From Nitrospirota bacterium (GTDB lineage: Bacteria; Nitrospirota; UBA9217), in contig CAVVUN010000015.1 of assembly GCA_963751455.1 (NCBI GenBank), forward strand, positions 672,001 through 736,000: DNA of 64,000 bases, read 5' to 3'. Shown here one piece after another: positions 36,021 to 62,388 of this stretch (positions are counted from its first letter, which is position 1; every line of letters starts with the position of its first letter). The notes under the pieces are model-generated. The model saw only the letters and a list, made by a program, of their open reading frames with translations, had not been told where the DNA came from and searched no databases. Both the position numbers and the translations under genes were made by a program.

Positions 36021-36098
36021 GTCCCCATCGTCTAGCCCGGCCCAGGACACCGCCCTTTCACGGCGATAACGGGGGTTCGAATCCCCCTGGGGACGCCA
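36021..36098 (+). tRNA. tRNA-Glu (TTC), integration target
   Basis: Anticodon loop CTTTCAC, GGTTCGAATCC T-arm, CCA end. Confidence 0.95.
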
Positions 36099-37428
36099 AT
36101 TTACTTCTGTAACCCACGGATTTCTTAATCAGATTTTCCGTGGGTTTTCTTGTTTCTGGCCTGTTGTGAATGTCTTGTGAATGAATTTCTGTAACACTCC
36201 CGCCGTGCATCTTCCGCAGCATCTCTACTGATCGCTGAACATACTTTTTCGACATCCCTGACGTGCTCTGACCGGCCATCATTTCCATGTCCTTCTCACT
36301 GTGCCCGTTGAGTGCGTACTGCGTCATCGTCGTGTGTTTGGTTGCATTGTACACGTTGACATAAGGAACGCCGGCGCGTTTGCAGGCACGCTTCCAGATG
36401 TCATTCACAACCCAGTTGGAATACCGGGTGCCGAGTTCGTTCGGGAAAGCGATCTCTCGACCAAAGCGGCCTTGGAGAATTGAGGTATCAAAGCGAGGAT
36501 GAAGCGGAATCACGTATTCCTTTCGGTTCTTTCTCGTTTTCAGACTTCGATCAAAATCCAGACTATTCTCAATCCAGACGGTCATTGCCTTCAAATCGAA
36601 GTGCCGCACATCCAGGGCGCAGGCCTCGGACGGCCGCACAGGATGCTTAATGAGAAAGTCGATAATCGCATGATGAACCGGGTTCGTGATAGAAGCGAAC
36701 GCCTTGTCCCGGTCCTCGATCGGCATGACGCGAACCAGCTTCTCGCTGAGTACAATCGGGTCGAAGATCGGAACGATGAAATCACGCTTCATTTTGTGGA
36801 GCCAGTTACAGAAGCCGCGGAGCTGATCCATCACGTTCTTGACCGCCTTATCTGAAAGCGGCTGATCTTTATGGCCTCCGAATGGGATCCGGTATACCTC
36901 AACGAGGTGCTTCTGGAAGCGGGCGATGTCCATTGTCTCGATCTCGAGCATGTTCCGTTCGCTGAAGAATGGGATGAAATGATCCTCGCAATACTGCTCG
37001 ATCTTTCGAATATAGGAGAGCGCCCGTTTCGGTTTCCTCGAGCGAATGTCGCTCAGCCAGGTGATTTTATCAGGCCCGGGATCTGCCGTTTGAAAAAGGA
37101 ACTTCCCTTTGTATTCGTCCAGCTCAGAAGCAAGGTATTTTCTGATATCGAACCGCCGATGCTCAGTCTTGCACACGTCAAGATCGGTTCGGATACTCTC
37201 AATGACTCCATAGGCGAGACTATAACTCGAGAACATATGCCCGGTCTTGTAATACCGGCTGATCACGTAGGGCTTGTGGGTGACTTTATCGTAAAAGAAG
37301 ATGTAGACCTTATCGGGTTTTGTTTGGCAGGTAGGACATATTAAAGCAGGTGCTTTTCCGACAAAGAGCTCCTTGAACTTTCCGGCGCAGACAGGACACA
37401 CTTCGCGGGTACGGACTTGTCCGCTCAT
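36058..37428 (-). CDS. Tyrosine integrase with N-terminal CxxC/CxxC zinc ribbon; reads through attL into the tRNA
   Basis: VRPSEACAL (Arg I), K, YNATKH, MAGQS, KKY; GGAGG RBS before ATG 37428. Confidence 0.88.
   Translation of the reverse strand: MSGQVRTREVCPVCAGKFKELFVGKAPALICPTCQTKPDKVYIFFYDKVTHKPYVISRYYKTGHMFSSYSLAYGVIESIRTDLDVCKTEHRRFDIRKYLASELDEYKGKFLFQTADPGPDKITWLSDIRSRKPKRALSYIRKIEQYCEDHFIPFFSERNMLEIETMDIARFQKHLVEVYRIPFGGHKDQPLSDKAVKNVMDQLRGFCNWLHKMKRDFIVPIFDPIVLSEKLVRVMPIEDRDKAFASITNPVHHAIIDFLIKHPVRPSEACALDVRHFDLKAMTVWIENSLDFDRSLKTRKNRKEYVIPLHPRFDTSILQGRFGREIAFPNELGTRYSNWVVNDIWKRACKRAGVPYVNVYNATKHTTMTQYALNGHSEKDMEMMAGQSTSGMSKKYVQRSVEMLRKMHGGSVTEIHSQDIHNRPETRKPTENLIKKSVGYRSKLASPGGFEPPLSP
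36164..36185 (+). repeat. Arm-type integrase-binding repeat (left)
   Basis: TTGTGAATGTCTTGTGAATGAA; copy with one mismatch at 56075-56096. Confidence 0.75.
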
Positions 37429-46580: not shown

Positions 46581-49500
46581 TCATTCCCCTAAGTCTGGCA
46601 AAAAGAAAGTGCGTTCCGATTCTGAGTATTCCCCATACTCCTTCTCGCGGTCCCAAATGCGCAGCCGTATAAAGAAGGCGAGCTTGCGCCCTAACCGTTC
46701 CATTGCGTCGGTGAGCAGCTCCTGATCGATCATGGTCGCCGTGCCGCAGCGCGTCGAACCTCCCTTCGGGTACAGCGGAGTCCAATTGTCGTTCCATATC
46801 CGAGTTCTCGAGGCAATCTTCCCGTCGGATGCGATACAGTCGATACTCTCCCGTGTACATCGGATTTCGGTTTTGGGAACCGTATAAGAGGCGGGAACCT
46901 TCAGCCCTATGGACAAATAGTCGCTTTGCCATGTACCAAACGGTATTGGTATAAGGGAATTGCAGACAGCAACCTCGTCACCCGTTTTACCTCCAGAGCT
47001 TGCTTCCTCGATCGTGATCTCTTCTGGCGGCCCCTTGAGTTCGAAAGTGTCATTAACAAACAGTAATAAATTTTTTTCGTAGAGGTAGGCACTATCAGGT
47101 AGTTCATAATCAGGCGTTATGAGGTGGGCACTGAGGGTAAGGTCGGCATACTTCTGCACCAATGACGTTACTGGCGTATGGAGCGACACGAGCATCATGC
47201 CTTCAGCGCGTGCTGTCTGCACGAGCTCGCGGACGATAGGCGAGAAATTAGCGCCGGGAGCGCAGAATCTTTCAGGGAAGTCCGAGAGCCACACCGGCCT
47301 TGCGACAGGTTCGACATCGAAGAGACCTGCAATCCCGTGAACGATGTCGACGCAAGAGCCTTCCGCGATCCTCTGGGGCATACGCAACTCGCTCACGGCA
47401 TAAGCCAGAGTCCGCAGATAAGCGGAGCGATAGACCTCGCTCATACGCTGCCAGTACTGGCCAATGATTCCCGCACGTGCGTCTGATACGTTGTCGAAAT
47501 AATACGGGTAGCGCGTGTAGTGCGTGCCCAGCTTGTCTCGTAAGGTTTTCCACTCATAGGCCCAGTGCTGGAGAAAGGGGTAGCCGCTCAAGAGTTCCAG
47601 CTTTGTCAGATTGTTCATGAGGATCGGTGGAACATGCGCGGTCTTGTGCTCCTCGAAGTAGCTATCGCTCTCGAAGTCGGCCGGAGCCCGTCCCGAGTGA
47701 GCCTGGCGCCATCCGCCGATGCCGTGCCCCTGTCCATAGGTCCGCTCCAGAATGATGTCGGCGAGAATCGAAGGGCAATGGAGGCGCGATGCGAGCACCG
47801 TGCGCAAGGGTCTACCGTCTGGCGATGTCAGGAAGACGATCGTGAGGATCTGACAGACTTCAGACTCGGTATTACACTGATCGAGATAGTCCAAAAGCGC
47901 GTCCTCCGTTGAGGACCGCGTCCCCGGATCATTGAGAAGGTTGCGGATTTCCTTGGCCGTTCTCCAGCGCGACATTGGCACTGGCCATTTCAGCCGCTCG
48001 AAAAGGAAGGAAAGCGCGAGAGGGGCCGAGGTTGCTAGGAACCATGGTGTCGCCGGGATCGGCTGCTCTCGAACCTCCTCAACCAACGTGTCAACGAAGG
48101 CAGCCGTGATCTTGTCGGCAAGTTCCACCTGCCCGACGAGCATCAGGAAGCGCACCAAGTATTTGTAACCAATGACGAAACTGTAGCGTCGGCGTCGGTA
48201 ATAAGGAAGGGGCACCGACGTGTCCTTGATGTATTGGAGCCAGCGATCCGGATAGTGCTTTGCAGCGAGCCTAATTCGCGTCATTATTTGAGCATCTGAT
48301 TCATAGTAGCTCCAGCCATGGCGATGAATGTGAGCTTTGACGAGCCATGGGTATGCAGCGTCCTTACCTTCGACAGCGAGGCTCACGAGGAAAGCTTCGT
48401 CTAGGACTTCCTCAGCGCTGTAGGTTGTTTCGCTCGTGTCGAAATAGGAGAGGATCGATTGCAGAGCTTTTGATGTTTTGCCCTGGCTCTTCCAGTGATG
48501 GAGCCACTTCGCCATGAATTCCCTGCGGCTCCTGTAATGAAGGGGCACCGCTGCTTTAGCGACGGCGGCGAAATCCTCATAGCTGAATGATGTGGGATCG
48601 ACCTTAGCAGCCTCTTTCTCCTGCTCGGAAAGCTCTTCTTCCTTAGTCTCTTTGATTTCGAGGCCAACTTTGGGCGGTCGGCCTAGAAAGACATTCTGAT
48701 TTTCTAGAAGCTCTTGGGCGGGCTGTTCATTGACCGCTCGGCCCTCGAGAACCCCTAGAGTTCGCTCGTCTAGGAATGTGCGGGCCAGTGCAGCACCTTG
48801 CGGAGATTTGAGATCCATAATCTTCGCGCATTCGTTCAGACACTCGTCGGCATAGGAATATTCGTCCGCCGAAAGGTGATGTCTATAGATGGATGGCAAG
48901 TGGTCGGGTGCAACCTTCGCCACGACTTCGATAAGTTCAGAACGCACGTGATTCGTATCGTCGCCGTCTGTGAATTCCGTGATCATCTCGATAATCGGGA
49001 CGAGCGTTTCGACGTGTGTCCGCGCGACAGCCGGTTTCCTCGCGCTCAACTCGACAACGGCATCGAGCACGTCCATCGCGTGGAGGTCTTTATGCGAGCC
49101 ATATCCGACAAGGCATTCGGCAGCGTGTGCGAGAAACTCGGCCTGTCTTCCATCCTCGTAGAGAAGCGCCATGTTTGCGAGTTCCGTCCAGCGCCCTGAA
49201 CGCTCGCTGAAATCCGTCACCTTCCCTGACAGCGCTTTCGCCTCGTCACCAAGAAGCACCGCCACACCATCTTTATCGAGGAGAGGAATCCTGTTTCCCA
49301 CATTACGTGTCGCCCAGATCGTGTCAGACCAATGGTCGGATTGGCGCGCTATGCTCAGCTCCGAGACAGGCACCCTAGTATTGCTGGGATCGGAAAGTCC
49401 AAGGAAATGAAGATCGACACCGATACGCCGGAGAGCCTCGCTGAAGGCTCGATATTGTGCGGCTTCTTTTTCGGGAGATGGACCCCAATGGACAGGTTCC

Positions 49501-52412
49501 AGATCAGCAGTAGCCGCATACACGGCTGAGAAGGTTGGAACAAGGCGGCCTGCTGCAATGTCCCGTGCAATCTCTTGGAGTTTTGCCGTTCCCTGCGGTA
49601 GCCATCCCAGATCGGCGCTGCCGAGACCCGGATGGATCATTGAATAATCGCCGCCCTTCGCACAAAACCCGATGTACAGAGCGGTCCAAAACACGTCGTA
49701 AAAGAAGGATATGACGTCCGGGTTCTCTCCGAGTGAATAGTGCTCCCGGATGAGGTTGTTGGGCACCGGAGGGATATACACATCTATCTTTGCGTCGCGA
49801 TCGCGCCAGAGGAAGAAGCATGCGGCAAAGGCCGAGAGGGACTCGTTACCGAGAGGAACGAGTTCTCTGACATCCACGCCTTTGAAACTGCCCGCCCGTA
49901 TGAGCGCGTCGTGGATTAACCGCCGCTGATCGTTCCACTTGGCGCCGCCTAGCGTTTTGCGGATAAGCTGAAGCCCCTCGATGTTTTGCGCATCACCAAG
50001 CAGACGGATGAACCTCGAGACATGGGGCTCTGGCTTCTTGAAGCCGCGCGCATAGTTTAGCGTGCGCCGCACTGTCTCCTTATCCATCAGCGCACTAACC
50101 GAGAGGAGGTGATCCGAAAGCTCCGTGAATTCCCGCTCGGGACGGTGCCGCAGCACGATCCATGCATTGACGCGGCGGGCCAGTTCATTGAGGCATGCTG
50201 GCAAGATCTGAAGTGACATTTCTTTTGGCCCGAGTCGGGCGAGTTGTGTTACTTCGCTGTCGGTCAAATTGTGGATGTCGTCTAGAAGATTCAGCGTCTG
50301 CTGACGGTTGTCGGAAACCGCAAGCGCAGTCGCTCGGTAAGCGGCAAAATCACTCGATTGAAACTCGCGGGCGTTTGAAACGCGGGTCTTCAGACTGCGA
50401 AGAAATACTGTTCGCGACAAGTCTGCGTCTTTGAAGGTCTTCTCTTCAGCGACGGCGAGTATATTTTCAATCTGCTGATCGGGCCAGCCCTTCGCGAAGG
50501 ATTCGACGACCCAATCCCGCGTTGCGCCTACGAACAAATCTTCGAAATGGCCTGCTTGCGCCCCTGCAAGCCATAGCCAGCCCCATCGCCAGTATTCAGG
50601 CGCATCATTCGCGAGCCAGTTGATGATCTTGGGCAGGAGTGCTTGATAACTTTCCGCATGGTCATCCCGCTCCCGTACCCATGCGAAGATGCTCGAGTGG
50701 AAAGGGACCATGCCGACATTGCGTGGCTCCAACAGGTGGTCGATCTGGCTGAAGTCCCCTAGCACCTGCCTTATGCCGAGGCTTGGCCAGAAGAAGTCCG
50801 ATCCCGCGAGCATGTGGAGAGCGTTCTTGGCATCCGCGCTGAGGTGAACCCAGAGCCCCCGATAGTAGGTACGGATATCGCCATCCGGACACGGCGGGAG
50901 CAATTGAATTTCCTCCGCAGACGTTGGGCGGCCTGCGCGGATAACACCCTCGTATGCGTAAATCAAATGCAGCGGGTGGCCCTGGCTGATATTAAAAAAC
51001 GCTGTCGCGATCTCGTCGATCATTTCAGAACGCCGCTCGGGAGGCGGATCAAACCGGAAGATGAGTGGACGCGCCTTGAACTGCTGCACCACCCAGCGGT
51101 GGACCGCGACCTCGTCCATACGCGGAATCTCGCTCCAGTCATCGTCATTCGCGATCGTCAGCAGCTTGCCGGGCAGCTGCTCGTCACTGACGCGCTGCGT
51201 TCCGACGATAAGATTGACATTTGGCGGTAGCGGGAGCAGTTCGTTGAAGAGGTGATTGAGTTGGTCGACGCGCTGCGTGTCGCGCCAAACGTGATCGAGT
51301 CCATCGACGATGATATAAAGCCGCTGACCTTTGCCGGCGAGGTTGGTTGCAGCAATCCCGATGGCGGCCCGCAACTCGCTAGGATCACCCTTGACGCCGG
51401 CCATGGCTTCAGGATGGCGCACATAGAGCTGATCCATTAGCGAGGTCGAAATTTCGATAAAAGAGCTGCGGTTGGAACTCGAGTCCTCCGCTGACAAAAA
51501 GTAGTGGTGTCGCGTTATGGCCGCGCCTTCCTTTTGAAGCTCCTGGGTCAGATAGCTGAGGTAGGTGCTCTTCCCGCGCCCTGGCGTTCCCCAAAGGATT
51601 GTGATCGGATTGTCGTCCCTCGCGATGCGTGCACGAAAGGTCTTGTGGAAGGCCTCGCTCGGCGGGCTGTAGCCGTCGAGGACGATAAAATCCTGTCGGA
51701 TAGGTTGCGGGCGGCGCTTCGTAATGAGCTGTACAAGATGCTCCCGCAGAATATGTCCATCGGGTTCAGGCTGGTTTTTGCGGGTCGCCCAACGACGTAC
51801 GCTCTCGCGGAAAAGAAGCCAACCCGCCGAATCAGTGTCTGTAGGTACGAGCTGATCGCGAAGATAGTCTTCGTATCTGTCGAGGTCCGGCATACCTCCT
51901 AAGAAATCGAACGTACTGAAGAATGTTTTAGCCTCGGCGGCGCCTCCGCATGCGCTCTCAACTGACTCGCGAAATTCCTTTGGTAGGAGGTCAAGGTCGA
52001 CCCGCATGCCTTTCAGGCACTTTGCGAACTCCCCAGACGGTATGCGGTTTGTTTTAAGACCAGCACTGTGGATTGGACCCATCGCTGCCACACGGGCAAG
52101 GGACTTCGCCCACTTTTCGAGCATCGCCGTCCCTTTTTCAGTTTTGGCGAGAAGCCAGTCCCAATCCAGCTCGTAGCGGCCGGGGTCGACCGTGAACTTG
52201 ACCTGTACGAGCTCGTAGGAACCATCTTTACGTGCAGCCACAACGTCGTCGAGCGCTCGGTAAGCCGTGTCGTCGGCCTCGAGCAGCACCCACGCGTAGA
52301 GCTCAGGGTCTCGGTACTGGCGAATAAGCACCTCGATACCGACGAGGTCTTGGTACTCGAAAGCTGCTCTTGTTATCGCGGCGGGCTTTATCCGGGATTT
52401 TGCCATTGTCAT
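46581..52412 (-). CDS. PD-(D/E)xK nuclease - STAND/NACHT NTPase - helical sensor protein (Avs-like anti-phage candidate)
   Basis: N-terminal FEYQD...LDDVV...VQVK; Walker A GTPGRGKST; Walker B YIIVDGLD; GHPL; long helical C-terminal region; intact 1943 aa. Confidence 0.8.
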   Translation of the reverse strand: MTMAKSRIKPAAITRAAFEYQDLVGIEVLIRQYRDPELYAWVLLEADDTAYRALDDVVAARKDGSYELVQVKFTVDPGRYELDWDWLLAKTEKGTAMLEKWAKSLARVAAMGPIHSAGLKTNRIPSGEFAKCLKGMRVDLDLLPKEFRESVESACGGAAEAKTFFSTFDFLGGMPDLDRYEDYLRDQLVPTDTDSAGWLLFRESVRRWATRKNQPEPDGHILREHLVQLITKRRPQPIRQDFIVLDGYSPPSEAFHKTFRARIARDDNPITILWGTPGRGKSTYLSYLTQELQKEGAAITRHHYFLSAEDSSSNRSSFIEISTSLMDQLYVRHPEAMAGVKGDPSELRAAIGIAATNLAGKGQRLYIIVDGLDHVWRDTQRVDQLNHLFNELLPLPPNVNLIVGTQRVSDEQLPGKLLTIANDDDWSEIPRMDEVAVHRWVVQQFKARPLIFRFDPPPERRSEMIDEIATAFFNISQGHPLHLIYAYEGVIRAGRPTSAEEIQLLPPCPDGDIRTYYRGLWVHLSADAKNALHMLAGSDFFWPSLGIRQVLGDFSQIDHLLEPRNVGMVPFHSSIFAWVRERDDHAESYQALLPKIINWLANDAPEYWRWGWLWLAGAQAGHFEDLFVGATRDWVVESFAKGWPDQQIENILAVAEEKTFKDADLSRTVFLRSLKTRVSNAREFQSSDFAAYRATALAVSDNRQQTLNLLDDIHNLTDSEVTQLARLGPKEMSLQILPACLNELARRVNAWIVLRHRPEREFTELSDHLLSVSALMDKETVRRTLNYARGFKKPEPHVSRFIRLLGDAQNIEGLQLIRKTLGGAKWNDQRRLIHDALIRAGSFKGVDVRELVPLGNESLSAFAACFFLWRDRDAKIDVYIPPVPNNLIREHYSLGENPDVISFFYDVFWTALYIGFCAKGGDYSMIHPGLGSADLGWLPQGTAKLQEIARDIAAGRLVPTFSAVYAATADLEPVHWGPSPEKEAAQYRAFSEALRRIGVDLHFLGLSDPSNTRVPVSELSIARQSDHWSDTIWATRNVGNRIPLLDKDGVAVLLGDEAKALSGKVTDFSERSGRWTELANMALLYEDGRQAEFLAHAAECLVGYGSHKDLHAMDVLDAVVELSARKPAVARTHVETLVPIIEMITEFTDGDDTNHVRSELIEVVAKVAPDHLPSIYRHHLSADEYSYADECLNECAKIMDLKSPQGAALARTFLDERTLGVLEGRAVNEQPAQELLENQNVFLGRPPKVGLEIKETKEEELSEQEKEAAKVDPTSFSYEDFAAVAKAAVPLHYRSRREFMAKWLHHWKSQGKTSKALQSILSYFDTSETTYSAEEVLDEAFLVSLAVEGKDAAYPWLVKAHIHRHGWSYYESDAQIMTRIRLAAKHYPDRWLQYIKDTSVPLPYYRRRRYSFVIGYKYLVRFLMLVGQVELADKITAAFVDTLVEEVREQPIPATPWFLATSAPLALSFLFERLKWPVPMSRWRTAKEIRNLLNDPGTRSSTEDALLDYLDQCNTESEVCQILTIVFLTSPDGRPLRTVLASRLHCPSILADIILERTYGQGHGIGGWRQAHSGRAPADFESDSYFEEHKTAHVPPILMNNLTKLELLSGYPFLQHWAYEWKTLRDKLGTHYTRYPYYFDNVSDARAGIIGQYWQRMSEVYRSAYLRTLAYAVSELRMPQRIAEGSCVDIVHGIAGLFDVEPVARPVWLSDFPERFCAPGANFSPIVRELVQTARAEGMMLVSLHTPVTSLVQKYADLTLSAHLITPDYELPDSAYLYEKNLLLFVNDTFELKGPPEEITIEEASSGGKTGDEVAVCNSLIPIPFGTWQSDYLSIGLKVPASYTVPKTEIRCTRESIDCIASDGKIASRTRIWNDNWTPLYPKGGSTRCGTATMIDQELLTDAMERLGRKLAFFIRLRIWDREKEYGEYSESERTFFLPDLGE

Positions 52413-52562: not shown

Positions 52563-53198
52563 CTATAACCCAAATTGCAGCCGTGAAACTGCATCGATCT
52601 TCTTTTCATCGGATGTGTGGAGATACTTTTCGGTCGTCCGAATGTGACTGTGGCCTAAAAGTTCTTGAACTGTTCGCAGGTCAACGCCCTTGTCCAAAAG
52701 GGATGTAGCAAAGGTATGTCTCGTCGTGTGCGGCGTGATCCGCTTCGTGATGAGCGCCGCCTTCTTTACCCTCTTCATAAGGCAGTCAACGGCCTTGTGC
52801 GTGAGGGGCACCGGTTCGCAGTTGCCGCGCTCACCCAGGGTGAAGAAGAGCGGCCGGGCCGTGGCCGGTGCGCCGGCTCTGTCCTCGAAAAGATGAGGCA
52901 TACTGCTCTTGAGGGCCTTCTGATAATCGAGGACCGCCTCCACAACGTCGTTGGTGAGAGCAACGCGCCGTTGCTTCTTTCCCTTGCCGATCACGTCTAC
53001 AACCGTCTGATTCCGATATGTGGTCAGGTTCTCGATACTCAGGCTGCATACCTCGGCCTTTCTGAGGCCCGAGGAAAGCATAAGGAGTAGCAGGGCATAA
53101 TCACGCTTGCCCTTGAGGGTCCGCCGATCCGGGACCCGGAGGAGGGCTTTGACTTCATCCGCAGTCAAAAAATCCGATGGTCTCTTTATCTTTTCCAT
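52563..53198 (-). CDS. Minimal tyrosine recombinase (catalytic domain only, resolvase-like)
   Basis: RD.ALL.L...GLRKAE, GKGKK.R, HTTRHTFAT, LLGHSHIRTT.KY. Confidence 0.9.
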   Translation of the reverse strand: MEKIKRPSDFLTADEVKALLRVPDRRTLKGKRDYALLLLMLSSGLRKAEVCSLSIENLTTYRNQTVVDVIGKGKKQRRVALTNDVVEAVLDYQKALKSSMPHLFEDRAGAPATARPLFFTLGERGNCEPVPLTHKAVDCLMKRVKKAALITKRITPHTTRHTFATSLLDKGVDLRTVQELLGHSHIRTTEKYLHTSDEKKIDAVSRLQFGL

Positions 53199-55923: not shown

Positions 55924-56202
55924 ATTTCCCTCCTGAATTTGATGTTCACATTGAATCGTGATTGCCATGCATTCTAGCAGAGAGAAGCAAACTGTTCGGG
56001 CCAGACGAAAGCGAATCCAGCAGGGATTGCGGTTGGGGAGCTTCGGGCGATGAGGCGGCTCTGATCGAGTCATCTTGTGAACGTCTTGTGAATGAAAAAA
56101 AGGTCTATCCGTATGTTCTTTTTGCTCTTAACTGCTGGAAATATTGACTTTTTCTATTCTTCCTCAGGGGGTTCGAATCCCCCTGGGGACGCCAATCAAT
56201 TC

Positions 56203-56238
56203 AGGAGTTACCGGTTTCCGGTAGCTCCTTTTCTTTTT
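56203..56238 (+). terminator. Terminator after attR
   Basis: aggagttaccgg-ttt-ccggtagctcct followed by a T-tract. Confidence 0.7.
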
Positions 56239-57114
56239 ACTGTGCTGAATTTGTGCTAATTCCCCCGGACTCTTCCCCAAATGTGTTACGTTCAACTCTT
56301 GCCCGTCTGGTCCTTCCTAAAATCGAAATTTTTTTAACTTAGCTTTCCTCGCGTGACTCCCATGAGAGATGAACTGCTGGGGTCCGCTTGTTAATGCAGC
56401 GAGACGCCCGAAGCGAAGGAGGCGGGCTTCCGGGTTACGATCTGTCTTACTGTGGGGGTGCATGCGCTCGTGCAGGTGCCGGAGGCGCTCACAGGCTGGC
56501 AGGATTACAGCGGACGGCTATCCCGCGACTGGACATCTTCGGCTCCCTGCCGGGGTTAGAAAGTGCTTACTCGCGCCTGGCGCTTACGACGAGCGTAGGC
56601 GCGAGCAGCAGTCCCGCCCTACACTCGCGCGGTCGCACTCGTAAACGCGGGGTGCAGGCGCGAGGTCGCGTTATTTAGTCCCGACAAGTCGAGACGGTGA
56701 TCGAGGCTCCTCTGGGATACGTTCTTCTGGTGCAACTGCTTTCAAGCTGGCAGGGGAGAAGCATCTCGTTCCGGAGGAGCAACCTCTAACTTCCTCATTT
56801 TCTAAAGAGGACTACAAATGCGACCTCCCAGCGGTTCACGACGCACTACGACGGCCGGGGCCGGGGTAGTGCAAGTCGCGGGATTCGAAGTGATTTACGA
56901 GACCGACCCGCGCAGACCCGCTCCGCCATGTCATCCTCTGACTCTGCTTCTCGGAATATGAGGGGTTTCACGATCCTGCTGCCGGAAGAATATTAGTCGC
57001 GTTCACTTCCCCGGATTCGGCCGGGGGGACCTCTCCAAAGGGCTTCCATTTCCCTTTGATTTTATGTTATTATCATACAAAGTATAGAAGATGAAGGCTA
57101 GTCAAGAGGTGCAT

Positions 57115-57435
57115 ATGCTGCCGGTGGAAAAAACAATTCTCGATAGATTCAAAGCCCTTCTTGCCGCACGTGTAAACGTGTATAAGCTGATTCTATTCGG
57201 TTCTCGTGCCCGAGGCGATGCGGAATTTTCCTCAGATATGGACGTCCTGGTCATTCTGGAGGGTTCGCCTTCCGAGAAGGATTTCGATGTTGTCAGTGAC
57301 TGTGCATGGGAAGCGGGATTCGTACACGGGATCGTAGTCGTACCGGTCGTTTATTCGAGAAACGAATGGGAAAACACTCCTGAGCGCTATTCCCTGCTGG
57401 CCCGTGCCGTAGAAAAGGATGGAGTTCTCGTTTGA
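57115..57435 (+). CDS. Minimal nucleotidyltransferase (MNT) antitoxin-like protein
   Basis: LFGSRARGD...SDMDVLV. Confidence 0.9.
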   Translation: MLPVEKTILDRFKALLAARVNVYKLILFGSRARGDAEFSSDMDVLVILEGSPSEKDFDVVSDCAWEAGFVHGIVVVPVVYSRNEWENTPERYSLLARAVEKDGVLV

Positions 57436-57836
57436 AAGAACAGGAGATCGAAGACCTCGTACGCCATCGAATGGAGCAGGCTGCAACGGCTCTAGCTGAC
57501 GCAGATTTTCTCTTGCAGGGTAATCGCAGTGCGCAAAGCATCGTCAACCGGGCCTATTATGCCATGTTTTATGCCGCGCTCGCTCTTCTTCAAAAAGCAG
57601 GGAAAGTACCCTCGAAGCATGTTGGTGTGATAAGCCTCTTTGATACGGAATTCGTTCTGAAAGGCATGTTGCCGAAAGAGCTCTCAAAGACTTTTCATAA
57701 AGCCTTTGAGCTGCGACAGGTATCAGACTACAAGAGCGTTACTCACGTATCAAATGACAAAGCTGTAGAAACTCTTCAGAATGCAAAACGATTTGCAGAT
57801 GAAGTGCGTGTTTTTCTGGCTAAGCAGTCGTCTTAA
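57432..57836 (+). CDS. HEPN domain protein
   Basis: NRAYYAMFY, SKH.GVISLF..EF, RQVSDY; overlaps the MNT stop. Confidence 0.9.
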   Translation: MKEQEIEDLVRHRMEQAATALADADFLLQGNRSAQSIVNRAYYAMFYAALALLQKAGKVPSKHVGVISLFDTEFVLKGMLPKELSKTFHKAFELRQVSDYKSVTHVSNDKAVETLQNAKRFADEVRVFLAKQSS

Positions 57837-57986
57837 CAAAACTGTTTGGCTTCCCGTTTTTTATGCTTTTACCGTTTGTAAGGTTAACAAGAGACACTTT
57901 GAGCAGATTGACTCTTATTGATACCCGCCATCCTGTACACCTCAACCTCCATTCGCACACCTGCCGTTCAATGATTCGGAGATTCA

Positions 57987-59903
57987 ATGTCTAACAAGAA
58001 AGCTCTTCTCGAGGCGATTGAAAAAGAAGAAGCATTGCTTTCGAATCTGGACAGCGAACGCGAGAAATCTCTTTTTAGACTCAAAGCATTCAAACAACAA
58101 CTTGCCGAACTGGAAGCAACGTGCGCTGAGTCGGTTATATCCTACGCAGCCAAGACTCCCAAGGAAAAAGTATCGTTATTCCGTTCTCTGTTTCACGGGA
58201 GGGAGGATATCTTTCCGAGACTTTGGACCAGCCGCGCCGGCAAGAAAGGTTATTCTCCGGCCTGTTCGGATGATTGGATCTCCGGCACATGCGGGAAGAC
58301 GCACAAACCGCCTGTAAAGTGCAGCGAATGCACGAATCGAAACTTCCTTCCTGTAACCGATCAAGTCATTATGAATCATCTCCAAGGGCGTCATGTAGTC
58401 GGTGTTTACCCAATGTTGCCTGACGATACTTGCTGGTTCCTTGCCGCTGATTTCGATAAAGAATCATGGAGGGACGATGTCAGTGCATTCCGGGAAACCT
58501 GCAAGATCATGAATATCCCGGTGGCAATAGAACGATCACGCTCAGGAAATGGAGCCCATGCGTGGTTCTTCTTTGCCGAGCCCATCCCAGCGGCGACGGC
58601 GCGAACAATGGGATGCTACCTGATCACGGAAACCATGAGCCGGAGACATCAACTCAGCATGGAATCCTATGACCGGCTGTTCCCCAGCCAGGATACTTTG
58701 ACCAAAGGCGGCTTCGGGAACCTGATCGCGCTGCCGTTTCAGCATGAGCCACGCCAAGAAGGCAATACCGTATTCCTGGATGATAAGTTAAGTCCCTATG
58801 AAAATCAATGAGCGTATCTTGCATCAATAGGACGAATGTCACCGGAAGAAATTCAGCGAATTGCAAACGAGGCGATACGACTTGATAGTGTGATCGGTGT
58901 TCCGCGAGATGCCGGTCAAGATGAAGGCGATCATATTCCATGGACACGGTCGCCGTCCAGAAAAGCAGGGAAAAAGAAAGTCACCGGAACGTTTCCATCA
59001 GAAACACATGTTGTTTTTGCGCAACGTCTTTTTATCGAGAAAAAGACGTTGCCCTCGCCTTTCATAACCCGTATCAAGCGGCGGGCGGCGTTTCAGAATC
59101 CGATGTTTTATGAAAAGCAGAGTTTGCGCTTATCCACGGCAAGAATACCCCGTGTGATCTCCTGCTACGAAGAGCATCCTGAACACATCGCTGTCCCGAG
59201 AGGTTGTCTCGACAGCCTTCGCGAACTGTTCGTGGAGCATGGCGTAAAGCTCATGCTCGATGACAAACGTGTTGCTCCCGCCGGTCCATCATATGCCTTC
59301 CAGGGAACGTTGAGAGACGCGCAGCTGGAGGCCGTCAATGAAATTTTGAAGCACGATCTCGGCGTCCTCTCCGCACCGCCGGGATTCGGCAAGACGGTTA
59401 TCGGTGCTCATCTTATTGCCAACCGGGGTTGCAGCACACTCGTGCTTGTCCACCGGAAAGAGCTTCTCGATCAGTGGATTGCGCGGCTTTCCCTTTTTCT
59501 CGGCATTGATCCTAAGGAAATCGGAAGGATTGGGGCGGGGAAGAACAAGTCGAACGGAATGTTAGACGTTGCCATGATTCAGAGCCTGGTCCGGAAAGAT
59601 GAAGTCAATGATATTGTCGCCGGCTATGGTCAGGTGATTGTGGATGAGTGCCATCACCTCCCGGCAGTTTCCTTTGAGCGCGTCCTGAACGAGGGCAGAG
59701 CTCGTTATGTTGTGGGCCTGACCGCAACGCCCTACCGGCGCGATGGACACCAGCCGATTATCCATATGCAATGCGGTCCCGTCAGGTATTCGGTTCATCC
59801 GAAAAGCCAGGAAGCGAGAACGCAGTTCAAGCACCAGTTGATTTGTACAGCCACGGTGCTGATGGAAAACTCCGTGATCGCGCCTGAACGCTCAGGGGAT
59901 TAG
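57987..59903 (+). pseudogene. Primase-like plus SF2 (DEAD/DEAH-type) helicase, TOTE-like; nonsense codon and truncation
   Basis: LFRSLF.GRED, FLAADFD, ERSRSGNGAH, GFGNLIALP; TGA 58809 at Q[W]AYL, same frame resumes with APPGFGKT, DECHH, GLTAT; second RecA domain missing. Confidence 0.8.
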
Positions 59904-59960
59904 GGTCGCTTCTTTGCCCTTGACGCGCTGGGTAAATAATAACGCCATTATACTGTGACC

Positions 59961-60374
59961 TCATGTCGCCTCACTCCGCTGCCGCTCGATCTCCCGCAAA
60001 AACTCCCGCACATTTACGACTCTGACGGCGTCTTTCGGAAAGTGCTTCTTGTTCTTCGTTACGATGAAGTCCGCATCCCCGCCTAAGGCAGCGGAGAGGA
60101 ACTTTTCGTCATCGGCATCCGCGCAGAGGCCTTGCGCTGCCGCCGGGCGCACCTTGATCGCCTTAGCAAATACCAGTTCAAGCAGCTCTTCACTTTTGTC
60201 CGGGGGTACGTCGTTATCAAAAAGATGAATTACCCGGAGATACTCGTCGAAGACGTCGTGCGTGACGATCAATTCGAATTCTGCATCCTGAAATGCCCGG
60301 ATGATCTTTGCGGCTCCGCCGTCGGCATTAAGCAGACCGGCCAGAAAGATGTTGGTGTCGATGACGGCCCTCAA
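59961..60374 (-). CDS. PIN-domain toxin
   Basis: AVIDTNIF, C.DADDEKFL.AA, IVT.N.KHF. Confidence 0.88.
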   Translation of the reverse strand: MRAVIDTNIFLAGLLNADGGAAKIIRAFQDAEFELIVTHDVFDEYLRVIHLFDNDVPPDKSEELLELVFAKAIKVRPAAAQGLCADADDEKFLSAALGGDADFIVTKNKKHFPKDAVRVVNVREFLREIERQRSEAT

Positions 60375-60646
60375 TTACGCGGACCCCGTCGTGCGGTCTT
60401 TACGGCCTCATCTATGCTTTTCGCGGTGATGCCCGCCCGCTTCGCTGATTTGCGCACGCTCCCCAAGGCCTCATCGAACTTCCGTGCCCAATCCACGTTC
60501 TTGTCAGAAACACGCTTTGGGGTGATGATGATATGATTGTTGTCGTAGGATACTTCGACGACGTCACCCTGCTCAATATGCGCCTTTTTCCGAATATCGG
60601 CGGGGATCGTGACCTGGGCGAATCGTTTTACCTTCACTAGCGACAT
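60371..60646 (-). CDS. AbrB/MazE family antitoxin
   Basis: QVTIPADIRKK..I..GD.V; 4-nt overlap with the PIN gene. Confidence 0.88.
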   Translation of the reverse strand: MSLVKVKRFAQVTIPADIRKKAHIEQGDVVEVSYDNNHIIITPKRVSDKNVDWARKFDEALGSVRKSAKRAGITAKSIDEAVKTARRGPRN

Positions 60647-60721
60647 TGCAGTTCTCCTCTCTTAATCTCTTAATTTAAAATTTTACACCTATTTATGGCG
60701 TCAGTCAACCTCCTTCTTGCC

Positions 60722-61848
60722 CGTTGCTTCATAATAAAATGTTACCGGAAGATAGTATGTAGGTTTAAGGTTTGAAGATCTTTTTAAGCTTCTTTTCCAA
60801 GGCTTTTCTTAAGACAAAGAGGTTCAGCGTTTTGAATTGTTCCATGAGTGCATGCTTTGTTTTTGCGGAGATCTCAGGAGAGTCCAGGCGATCGTAGCCG
60901 AGCCATTGCCTCACGTGAGTCCAGTTTTTTTGCTCCACGTGGGCGTTGTCGTCTTTTTTATAAGCACGGCTCCGGGTAAACTGAACCGGCCGGATTCTGT
61001 TCTCGGTCAGATAGCGAAGCAGGTGGTGATTTAAAAACTCACTACCGTTGTCAGTGTCAAAGCCCAGGATCGGGAACGGAAGCGATTGTTCGATATTCTT
61101 GATCTGGTCGATGACATCCTGATAGTTTTTGCCCCAGACAGCGCGCTGTTCCGTCCAGCCGGTAGCGATGTCCACGCAATCGAGGGTGTTGGCATACATG
61201 CCTTCCGTAGAGCTTCCACAATGGGCAACGGTATCGGCCTCCAGGAAGCCCGGACGGGATTCATCCCATTGATTGGTTTTGATTGGAATATGCTTTTTTA
61301 AGAGCGTCCCTGGCTTGGTTGTCGCCCTGCCGTGTTTGGTATGCAGAGCACGGACCGGCTTTAAGACCCGGTCAATGCTTGATGGAGATATCCGGAGCAA
61401 GGCCGCCGCAGCCTTCTGGGAGATGGGGCCATAGGTCTTGATATAGCCGGGCAGCCACAGCGGGATAATGGCCTTCAATCGCTTTGAGCAGGGCAGATTC
61501 GCTGCCTTCCAAATGCGTTTTAAAGGCACCAGAAGCATCTCAGGATCATACAAGGGCCTTCTTCCTGGCTTTCGCAACGGTTTTGGGGTAAACCGTCGAA
61601 AGGTCCTCAGAAGCCTAAGCGCGTGCTTACGGTGGTACCCGCAGGTTGAACAGAATTCGTTCAGAATCGTTGTTTTTATTTTCCGGGAAGCGGCCCGGTA
61701 CCGTTTAACGATTGCAGCCAGATACTCCCGTTTTGATCGTGGACTCATCAGAACTAACCCTCCTTTGGGGGGTCATGTTCCGGTAACATGAATTATGAGT
61801 CAACGATCAATTTTTAAATTCAATTGGGTAACATTTAATTTGAGTCAA
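60722..61848 (-). mobile_element. IS with rve-type DDE transposase (ORF 60765-61748), probably internally deleted
   Basis: EADTVAHCG, DTDNGSEF, SRAYKKDDNAHVEQKN; imperfect IRs 60722-60750 and 61778-61805, extra end repeat 61827-61848. Confidence 0.82.
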
Positions 61849-61989
61849 TTCGGCCCCCAAAAAGCTTCCATTTGGCATTGATTTTATGCTATTATCACCA
61901 AACGAGCCGCGTAGCGCGAGTTCGCAGTTCCGGGAGGTCGCGTTGTTAGAGGGAGCCTCCGGCTCCTGCCGGAGGGGGCTCCACTGGCG

Positions 61990-62190
61990 GTGCAATGCCT
62001 TGGAGAATTTCTTGTCGAAGATTTCGGTTTTAATGAACTCTCTGTCAAAGAGGGAAATCGCGCCGCTATGTTTTGCGGAGAGCAAGCTGGTAAAGTTCGT
62101 GGTCCCCCTTTTCCATCGCTGCATTGAAGCTCCCGAGAGCGGCACGGAGCTTCCATTCGTAAGGTGAAATAATTGTCGTATTCGCGCGCT
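61990..62190 (-). pseudogene. Fragments of a second MNT-HEPN pair
   Basis: SAKHSGAISLFDREFIK...FSKALH parallels the 57432 protein; IISPYEW...AMEKG resembles an MNT C-terminus. Confidence 0.6.
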
Positions 62191-62249
62191 TGGCTTACTC
62201 CCGAATTCGCTCGCTACGCGAAGTGACGGTTCGTAGAGGAATCTCCAGA

Positions 62250-62280
62250 ATTCGAACCCCCGTTATAGCCGTGAAAGGCG
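62250..62280 (-). other. Inverted tRNA-Glu fragment
   Basis: Reverse complement cctttcacggc(t)ataacgggggttcgaat matches the tRNA-Glu anticodon-to-T-loop with one mismatch. Confidence 0.75.
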
Positions 62281-62388
62281 AAAAAACCTAAATACACCAG
62301 ATCGTTGGAATGCCAAGAAACTCCTAATTTTGAAGGAAAAACGGGAAACCCGGACAACATCAATCCCCCTGGGGACGCCAAAATTTCA

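Follow-up and report, generated by a model that had tools for sequence, protein, structure and literature searches.

An integrase gene that crosses its tRNA-Glu attachment core in a phage-derived element of a Nitrospirota bacterium

Why should the integrase gene of an integrated element run through its own attachment core and end in the antisense strand of the target tRNA, so that excision would rewrite the end of the protein? The question arises in the window, the 64,000-nt stretch of a Nitrospirota contig (CAVVUN010000015.1, positions 672,001–736,000) analyzed here. The initial annotation read this layout as a directionality switch, in which the circle makes a stable integrase and the integrated form a labile one.

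The attachment site and the two ends of the integrase

The features concerned are listed below by window position.

36071–56196, no strand: phage-derived element of 20.1 kb, annotated with Pfam (24 ORFs), PADLOC (8 ORFs), and PHROGs (24 ORFs)
36021–36098, plus strand: tRNA-Glu(TTC) found by ARAGORN; the integration target, whole after integration
36071–36100, plus strand: att core on the tRNA side, an exact 30-bp direct repeat covering the T-arm, acceptor 3′ strand, and CCA
56167–56196, plus strand: distal copy of the att core, identical over 30 bp; 56162–56196 with a 5-nt left extension
36164–36185, plus strand: arm-type repeat on the tRNA side, 22 nt with TTGTGAA twice, within the integrase tail (IHSQDIHN)
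56075–56096, plus strand: distal arm-type repeat, 22 nt with TTGTGAA twice, repeat family D10
36111–36146, plus strand: terminator-like hairpin 3′ of the tRNA (ViennaRNA, 10-bp stem, −17.6 kcal/mol), within the integrase tail codons
36058–37428, minus strand: tyrosine integrase gene, likely 456 aa from ATG 37428, with catalytic Tyr396
37446–37440, minus strand: ribosome-binding motif GAGGAGG ahead of ATG 37428 (consensus match only)
37494–37465, minus strand: weak candidate for a sigma-70-like promoter (consensus match only; one found versus 1.6 expected)
36058–36069, minus strand: integrated-form end Leu-Ser-Pro-TGA by translation, antisense of the tRNA variable arm and anticodon arm
56154–56165, minus strand: excised-form end Glu-Glu-Glu-TAG by translation of the joined site

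The tRNA-Glu gene is whole at one end of the element, a duplicated 3′ fragment of it lies at the other, and arm repeats flank attP, as in tRNA-targeting elements. The 30-bp core consists of the last 28 nt of tRNA-Glu plus 2 nt. The two arm repeat copies are 95% identical and lie on both sides of the core in the joined attP, which indicates that the two att sites are cognate and tied to one integrase. In attP, nine of the 10 bases to the left of the T-loop are mirrored in the 10 to its right (five of 10 in attB). The hairpin downstream of the tRNA is predicted to terminate the tRNA-Glu transcript; a strict terminator scan gave no match to it. An IHF consensus scan near both att sites gave no match at ≤1 mismatch. 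A 19-bp tRNA-Glu piece at 62362–62380 was rejected as a partner site, as it has neither a T-loop match nor an arm repeat.

The integrase matched Pfam PF00589 (E = 9e-11) and phrog_1 of PHROGs, and the predicted structure matched the folds of XerA, Tn1549 Int, and lambda Int. The catalytic Arg and Tyr of the Phage_integrase family are present as Arg265 and Tyr396, both invariant in 20 of 20 aligned sequences. Translation probably starts at ATG 37428, giving 456 rather than 488 residues, because of the GAGGAGG motif upstream, the sigma-70-like site, and the starts of homologues; the homologue starts also make GTG 37524 an unlikely start. The HxxR motif is replaced by NxxK and the second His by Gln, and 7/7 close relatives are alike in this (residues 361–387; window 36268–36346, minus strand). 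Four N-terminal cysteines, C11, C14, C31, and C34, are nearly invariant (residues 11–34; window 37327–37398, minus strand), and they suggest a zinc-ribbon arm-binding domain, for which there was no Pfam match.

Sixty residues follow Tyr396, passing in order over the last helix, the arm repeat, the 10-bp hairpin, and the T-arm. AlphaFold pLDDT is <50 for residues 408–456, where alignment coverage is thin. Read on the minus strand in the integrase frame, the core encodes L-A-S-P-G-G-F-E-P-P. In the integrated form the ORF ends with ASPGGFEPPLSP before the TGA at 36060–36058, which is the antisense of the tRNA-Glu anticodon bases plus A37. Translation of the ORF and the ARAGORN call thus bear out the initial description of a gene that crosses the att core and stops in the tRNA antisense strand. 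In the attP joined in silico, the integrase ends with ASPGGFEPPEEE and TAG at unchanged length. This second element of the description, a same-length Glu-Glu-Glu end read from codons 56165–56154, is likewise correct, and the arm repeats confirm the pairing. Excision would swap the last three residues of the integrase from LSP to EEE, 57 residues beyond the catalytic Tyr. Of 24 sequencing runs listed, none contains more than a 0.06 share of the window, and no RNA run with it is listed.

The odds of such an end were estimated from random flanks of local base composition. Equal length after joining is expected in 4–6% of cases, three acidic terminal residues in 0.03–0.12%, and three charged ones in 1–5%. 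The combination of equal length and three terminal acids has a chance of 1e-5 to 1e-4, for a pattern picked post hoc; the exact same-length EEE end is unusual, though it was chosen after being seen. Three of the nine EEE bases lie within the core inverted repeat and, given the mirror symmetry of attP, are therefore tied to the symmetry of the core; the one base that breaks the symmetry makes Glu, not Gly.

Read-through among relatives and at other cores

As a rule in this family, the integrase gene extends at its 3′ end into the attP arm and stops shortly ahead of the core. In the window integrase, 60 aa follow the catalytic Tyr; the tails of the 19 first-search homologues all measure 15–35 aa, and none of the 19 has the T-loop signature. 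P0002, which is 78–79% identical to the window integrase, encodes IHSQxxHN from the arm in the same frame, together with P0021 and P0022, and all three stop at 428 aa. For the six closest protein clusters, the stop-to-core distance was derived from protein length only. Among 173 stored family proteins, 145 have an aligned Tyr, and 28 were dropped as fragments or misaligned. The T-loop signature is present in four of the 145, the window integrase, P0027, P0028, and P0034, and the median tail is 30 residues. The last residue is charged in 77 of the 145, and none of them has three acids at its C terminus. The tree comprised 40 rows, a subset made up of first-search hits, top representatives, and loci with an intact ORF. 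In it, the window integrase is the sole read-through in a 24-row clade with a support of 100/100, and five others lie on a separate branch.

At the DNA level, the T-loop was located in 28 of 34 family loci, two being read separately because the search pattern missed them; 23 genes stop 6–88 nt before it, and five cross it, including that of the window. At the same tRNA-Glu, three other family members (L013, L004, and L006/L140, the last being an attP form on a viral contig) stop 16, 16, and 9 nt short of the end of the tRNA, and none crosses the core. Distant integrases that face tRNA-Glu in the family genomes also stop 5–17 nt short (7/7). The family loci with the same geometry form a small sample (n = 13). 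When close DNA relatives were sought, neither the integrase protein alone nor an alignment of the close subfamily found a viral locus, and the INPHARED phage set had no match. The acidic attP flank pattern occurred in one of 401 phylum genomes, the window's own; its two viral matches are other tRNA genes.

Excised-type tails were read in ten other cases, and none is acidic. Those of G161 and G147 have 20 residues and finish KSKR and KTSR, G248-Val has a long run finishing RRV, and G139-Val finishes CPR in a tentative pairing (different contigs, T-arm mismatches). The database proteins P0027 and P0028 end KSKG and KIKK. Outside the family, a complete phage ends HDQ, a phage group KSDT, and two serine recombinases KRRA and, tentatively paired, RMAA. 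None of six in-silico att pairs keeps the integrated length. The pairing in G407 is tentative (74 kb apart), and the pair in G147 lies on two contigs. The acidic tail, which was expected to be conserved if selected, is thus not a property of the homologues: one of 24 clade rows reads through, and 0/10 of the other tails are acidic.

Read-through is shared in a sister clade at tRNA-Gly/Val, which comprises five tree rows plus L029 and L167. Its members are L016 (G161:C7), L019 (G147:C88), L029 (G139:C12), L167 (G248:C28), P0027, P0028, and P0034. They always cross the core in the GFEP frame, and several have an excised end of ~20 residues rich in lysine. Since this clade reads through as a group, read-through can persist over time. 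In 4/4 distal flanks an A-rich DNA motif lies 57–58 nt from the T-loop; the lysine-rich end coincides with this motif, and the frame is lost in the flank at 57. The placement of the motif and the loss of frame fit a DNA-level constraint, and an assembly indel is possible there. A functional tail swap is more plausible in the tRNA-Gly/Val clade than in the window integrase, and with its shared read-through this clade is the better target for experiments.

Crossing of this core is not confined to the family. Among 42 viral loci with the same tRNA-Glu core, 13 have an ORF across it, and the nine crossing ORFs scanned comprise six serine and three tyrosine recombinases, none of them related to the window integrase, which indicates that crossing recurs easily. 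Six large serine recombinases from viral contigs (L117, L128, L130, L137, L145, and L152) end in tRNA-Glu antisense; four of them end Leu-Pro-Pro-stop, and one reconstructed excised end finishes in Ala-Ala.

Known systems and explanations for the read-through

Integrase genes that span attP are already known from Mx8, SSV, the rumA ICEs, and DsiB, and the layout is not new. Passages of the Islander paper describe the Mx8 and SSV genes as extending across attP (PMC4383910). In Mx8, integration replaces a 112-residue C terminus by 13 residues, and the product is less active, according to parts of PMC4701971 and PMC6070905. Like Mx8 Int, the window integrase is a tyrosine integrase whose gene contains the att core and gains a new 3′ end on integration. 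Unlike the large replacement in Mx8, the swap exchanges the last three residues of a tail predicted to be disordered for three others, and the close kin of the window integrase stop before the site. In the rumA ICEs, which have streptococcal serine integrases, att lies inside the integrase gene, and the excised form has another C terminus. As presented in sections of PMC4701971, they differ from the window in their protein-coding target, in a reciprocal exchange with a frame change, and in that the arrangement is common to the whole group. The serine recombinase ORF of Dehalococcoides DsiB overlaps att and the antisense of ssrA and has a divergent, variable C terminus; its authors propose both a trivial and a regulatory reading of the overlap (portions of PMC3146451). 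The window ORF likewise runs over its att site and into the antisense strand of a stable RNA gene. In DsiB, as far as those portions describe it, the target is a tmRNA and the overlap is always present, whereas the window gene encodes a tyrosine integrase and is the exception in its clade.

A parallel with mycobacteriophage BPs had also been drawn. In the relevant passages of PMC3694055, attP of BPs lies in the repressor gene, the free form carries a degron that integration removes, and proteolytic tags are the means of control; Int's own tag is unaltered by recombination, and the system is drawn without arm sites. The parallel holds insofar as recombination rewrites the C terminus of a protein, and it fails for the gene, which is the repressor in BPs, and for the direction, as the tagged form there is the free one. 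In the window the core lies in the integrase gene, and no repressor was recognized near it by Pfam or PHROGs. The excised form ends EEE, an end class linked to slower decay, rather than in a degron, and the element has arm repeats, small unannotated ORFs, and no recognized excisionase. The window integrase has an Mx8-like geometry and is not a BPs-type switch. A search of largely open-access literature found nothing on an integrase gene across attP with a C-terminal tail change at excision and nothing on a Nitrospirota prophage integrase or attP.

Here, we propose that the read-through of the window integrase is recent and incidental, in a crowded DNA region, rather than a selected stability switch (probability about 0.7). 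An incidental overrun is likelier than such a switch because the closest relatives stop short of the site. Judged by position, the tail residues are translated DNA and RNA signals: first the arm repeat, then the terminator-like hairpin, and last the T-arm. For the gene to cross the core, it would have been enough for this lineage to lose one stop or to change frame once. The tRNA then dictates the integrated end, its anticodon supplying the TGA, and the excised end is probably set by the purine-rich flank and in part by the symmetry of the core. As the swap occurs in a predicted disordered tail and the entire catalytic domain is kept, we expect catalysis to be similar in the two forms and the amount of protein to differ modestly at most. 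As with other arm-bearing tyrosine integrases, we predict that expression, together with an accessory factor, decides the direction of recombination. The arm repeats suggest that such a factor is in use, although none was recognized. The low chance of the tail, the asymmetric base that makes Glu, the reporter data on C-terminal Asp and Pro considered below, and the group read-through of the sister clade count against the incidental reading.

We consider it unlikely that the swap is a selected stability switch, in which an acid-tailed, stable Int from the circle would drive integration and a short-lived Int-LSP would hold the integrated element without an excisionase. The exact EEE tail has a low chance with random flanks. 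In the family, a charge is found at most excised-type ends (E, R, R, K, G, V, and R) and at none of the integrated ones (P, N, S, S, V, and V). Excisionase searches also fit a switch: in agreement with the initial description, none was recognized in 24 ORFs by Pfam or in 24 by PHROGs, and small unannotated ORFs remain. The lower activity of integrated Mx8 Int points the same way (in the part of PMC4701971 concerned). The premise that C-terminal residues affect proteolysis agrees with reporter assays in passages of PMC7246954. There, charged and in particular acidic C termini slow decay, a C-terminal Asp giving 3.6-fold slower decay than Leu. A C-terminal Pro can stall termination in Escherichia coli, and the expression of Pro in that assay is average. 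Under such a switch, loss of Int-LSP could proceed by protease recognition or by stalling at the Pro-stop with tmRNA tagging. In its most economical form, the switch would preserve length, with three far-end codons giving an acidic, stabilizing end and the integrated Pro-stop end being stalled, tagged, or degraded; the likelihood of this we rate as low.

Several observations oppose selection. The tail is unconserved among the clade rows and the other excised-type tails, and 77/145 ordinary family C termini are already charged, so that stopping short achieves the same result. In one unrelated case, tentatively paired, the excised tail has an Ala-Ala end, which points the opposite way. To our knowledge, LSP is not an Ala-Ala type degron. 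The window element has arm repeats, whereas the BPs type, which lacks an RDF, is drawn without arm sites in the passages of PMC3694055 on this point. The computational test set for a selected directionality switch, conservation of the tail across homologues, failed, with 0/19 homologues and 0/3 family members at the same tRNA-Glu showing the read-through. What stands of the initial interpretation is the DNA-level rewriting of the last three residues; the claim of a functional switch is not supported by the relatives, and an effect limited to this one integrase may exist.

Two further explanations were considered. Under an assembly artefact, a one-base indel or miscalled stop between the arm repeat and the core would hide a protein that really stops before the core. 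Both other reading frames of the window sequence do stop before the core, and the protein cluster of the window integrase has one member from one contig. Related integrases in other assemblies (G095, G139, and G248) appear in two frames, showing that indels occur in such records. This explanation is nevertheless very unlikely, as the rest of the 456-aa ORF is unbroken and aligns without a gap in frame, the P0002 cluster shares the frame through the arm plus eight residues further, and the hairpin in that stretch pairs over 10 bp. Alternatively, the element may be a stranded, decaying prophage or satellite that lost the stop after its mobility ended, so that no circle forms and neither tail is under selection. 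No capsid or large terminase was recognized (Pfam, 24 ORFs; PHROGs, 24 ORFs), the cargo is composite with a second recombinase, and the excised form was absent from the viral, INPHARED, and 401 phylum genome searches. With cores identical over 30 bp, arm repeats 95% alike, and intact integrase and replication genes, such decay is highly improbable.

If the length-preserving switch were true, the amount of Int would signal the recombination state of the element itself and take the place of an excisionase, and the tRNA-Gly/Val clade would be a second, older instance, with an uncharged integrated and a lysine-rich excised end. If the swap changed half-life, three residues would be enough to couple the integrase level to the recombination state, and the question why so many integrase genes run past tRNA att sites would become simple to test. 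The preferred reading, incidental overrun, carries a caution: integrase genes packed against att cores cross them readily, and selection need not lie behind a conspicuous tail in a single genome. The annotated C terminus of such integrases is tRNA antisense, unlike that of the free-element form.

Gene content and neighborhood of the element

The element encodes an O-like replication initiator, a DnaB-like helicase, a DnaG zinc finger, and a terminase-small-subunit-like ORF, and its cargo includes a NACHT defense protein and a second recombinase. The NACHT/STAND protein (46581–52412, 1943 aa) carries a nuclease-like domain at its N terminus and matches Avs1b weakly, and it is likely to be anti-phage defense cargo. 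The second tyrosine recombinase (52563–53198, 211 aa) consists of a catalytic domain only. A second element of 6.2 kb follows in tandem (56197–62380), closed by the 19-bp tRNA-Glu piece at 62362–62380. It contains a nucleotidyltransferase/HEPN pair, a TOTE-type primase, and a helicase-like ORF. At its left end only the last codons of another integrase remain (KEKELPETGNS), intact counterparts of which are found in L053 and L086. In the family genomes, tRNA-Glu is a hotspot of integration where up to three copies of the core lie in tandem (for example, G042:C14, G131:C1, and G239:C6), and the genome of the window has displaced 3′ fragments at several further tRNAs.
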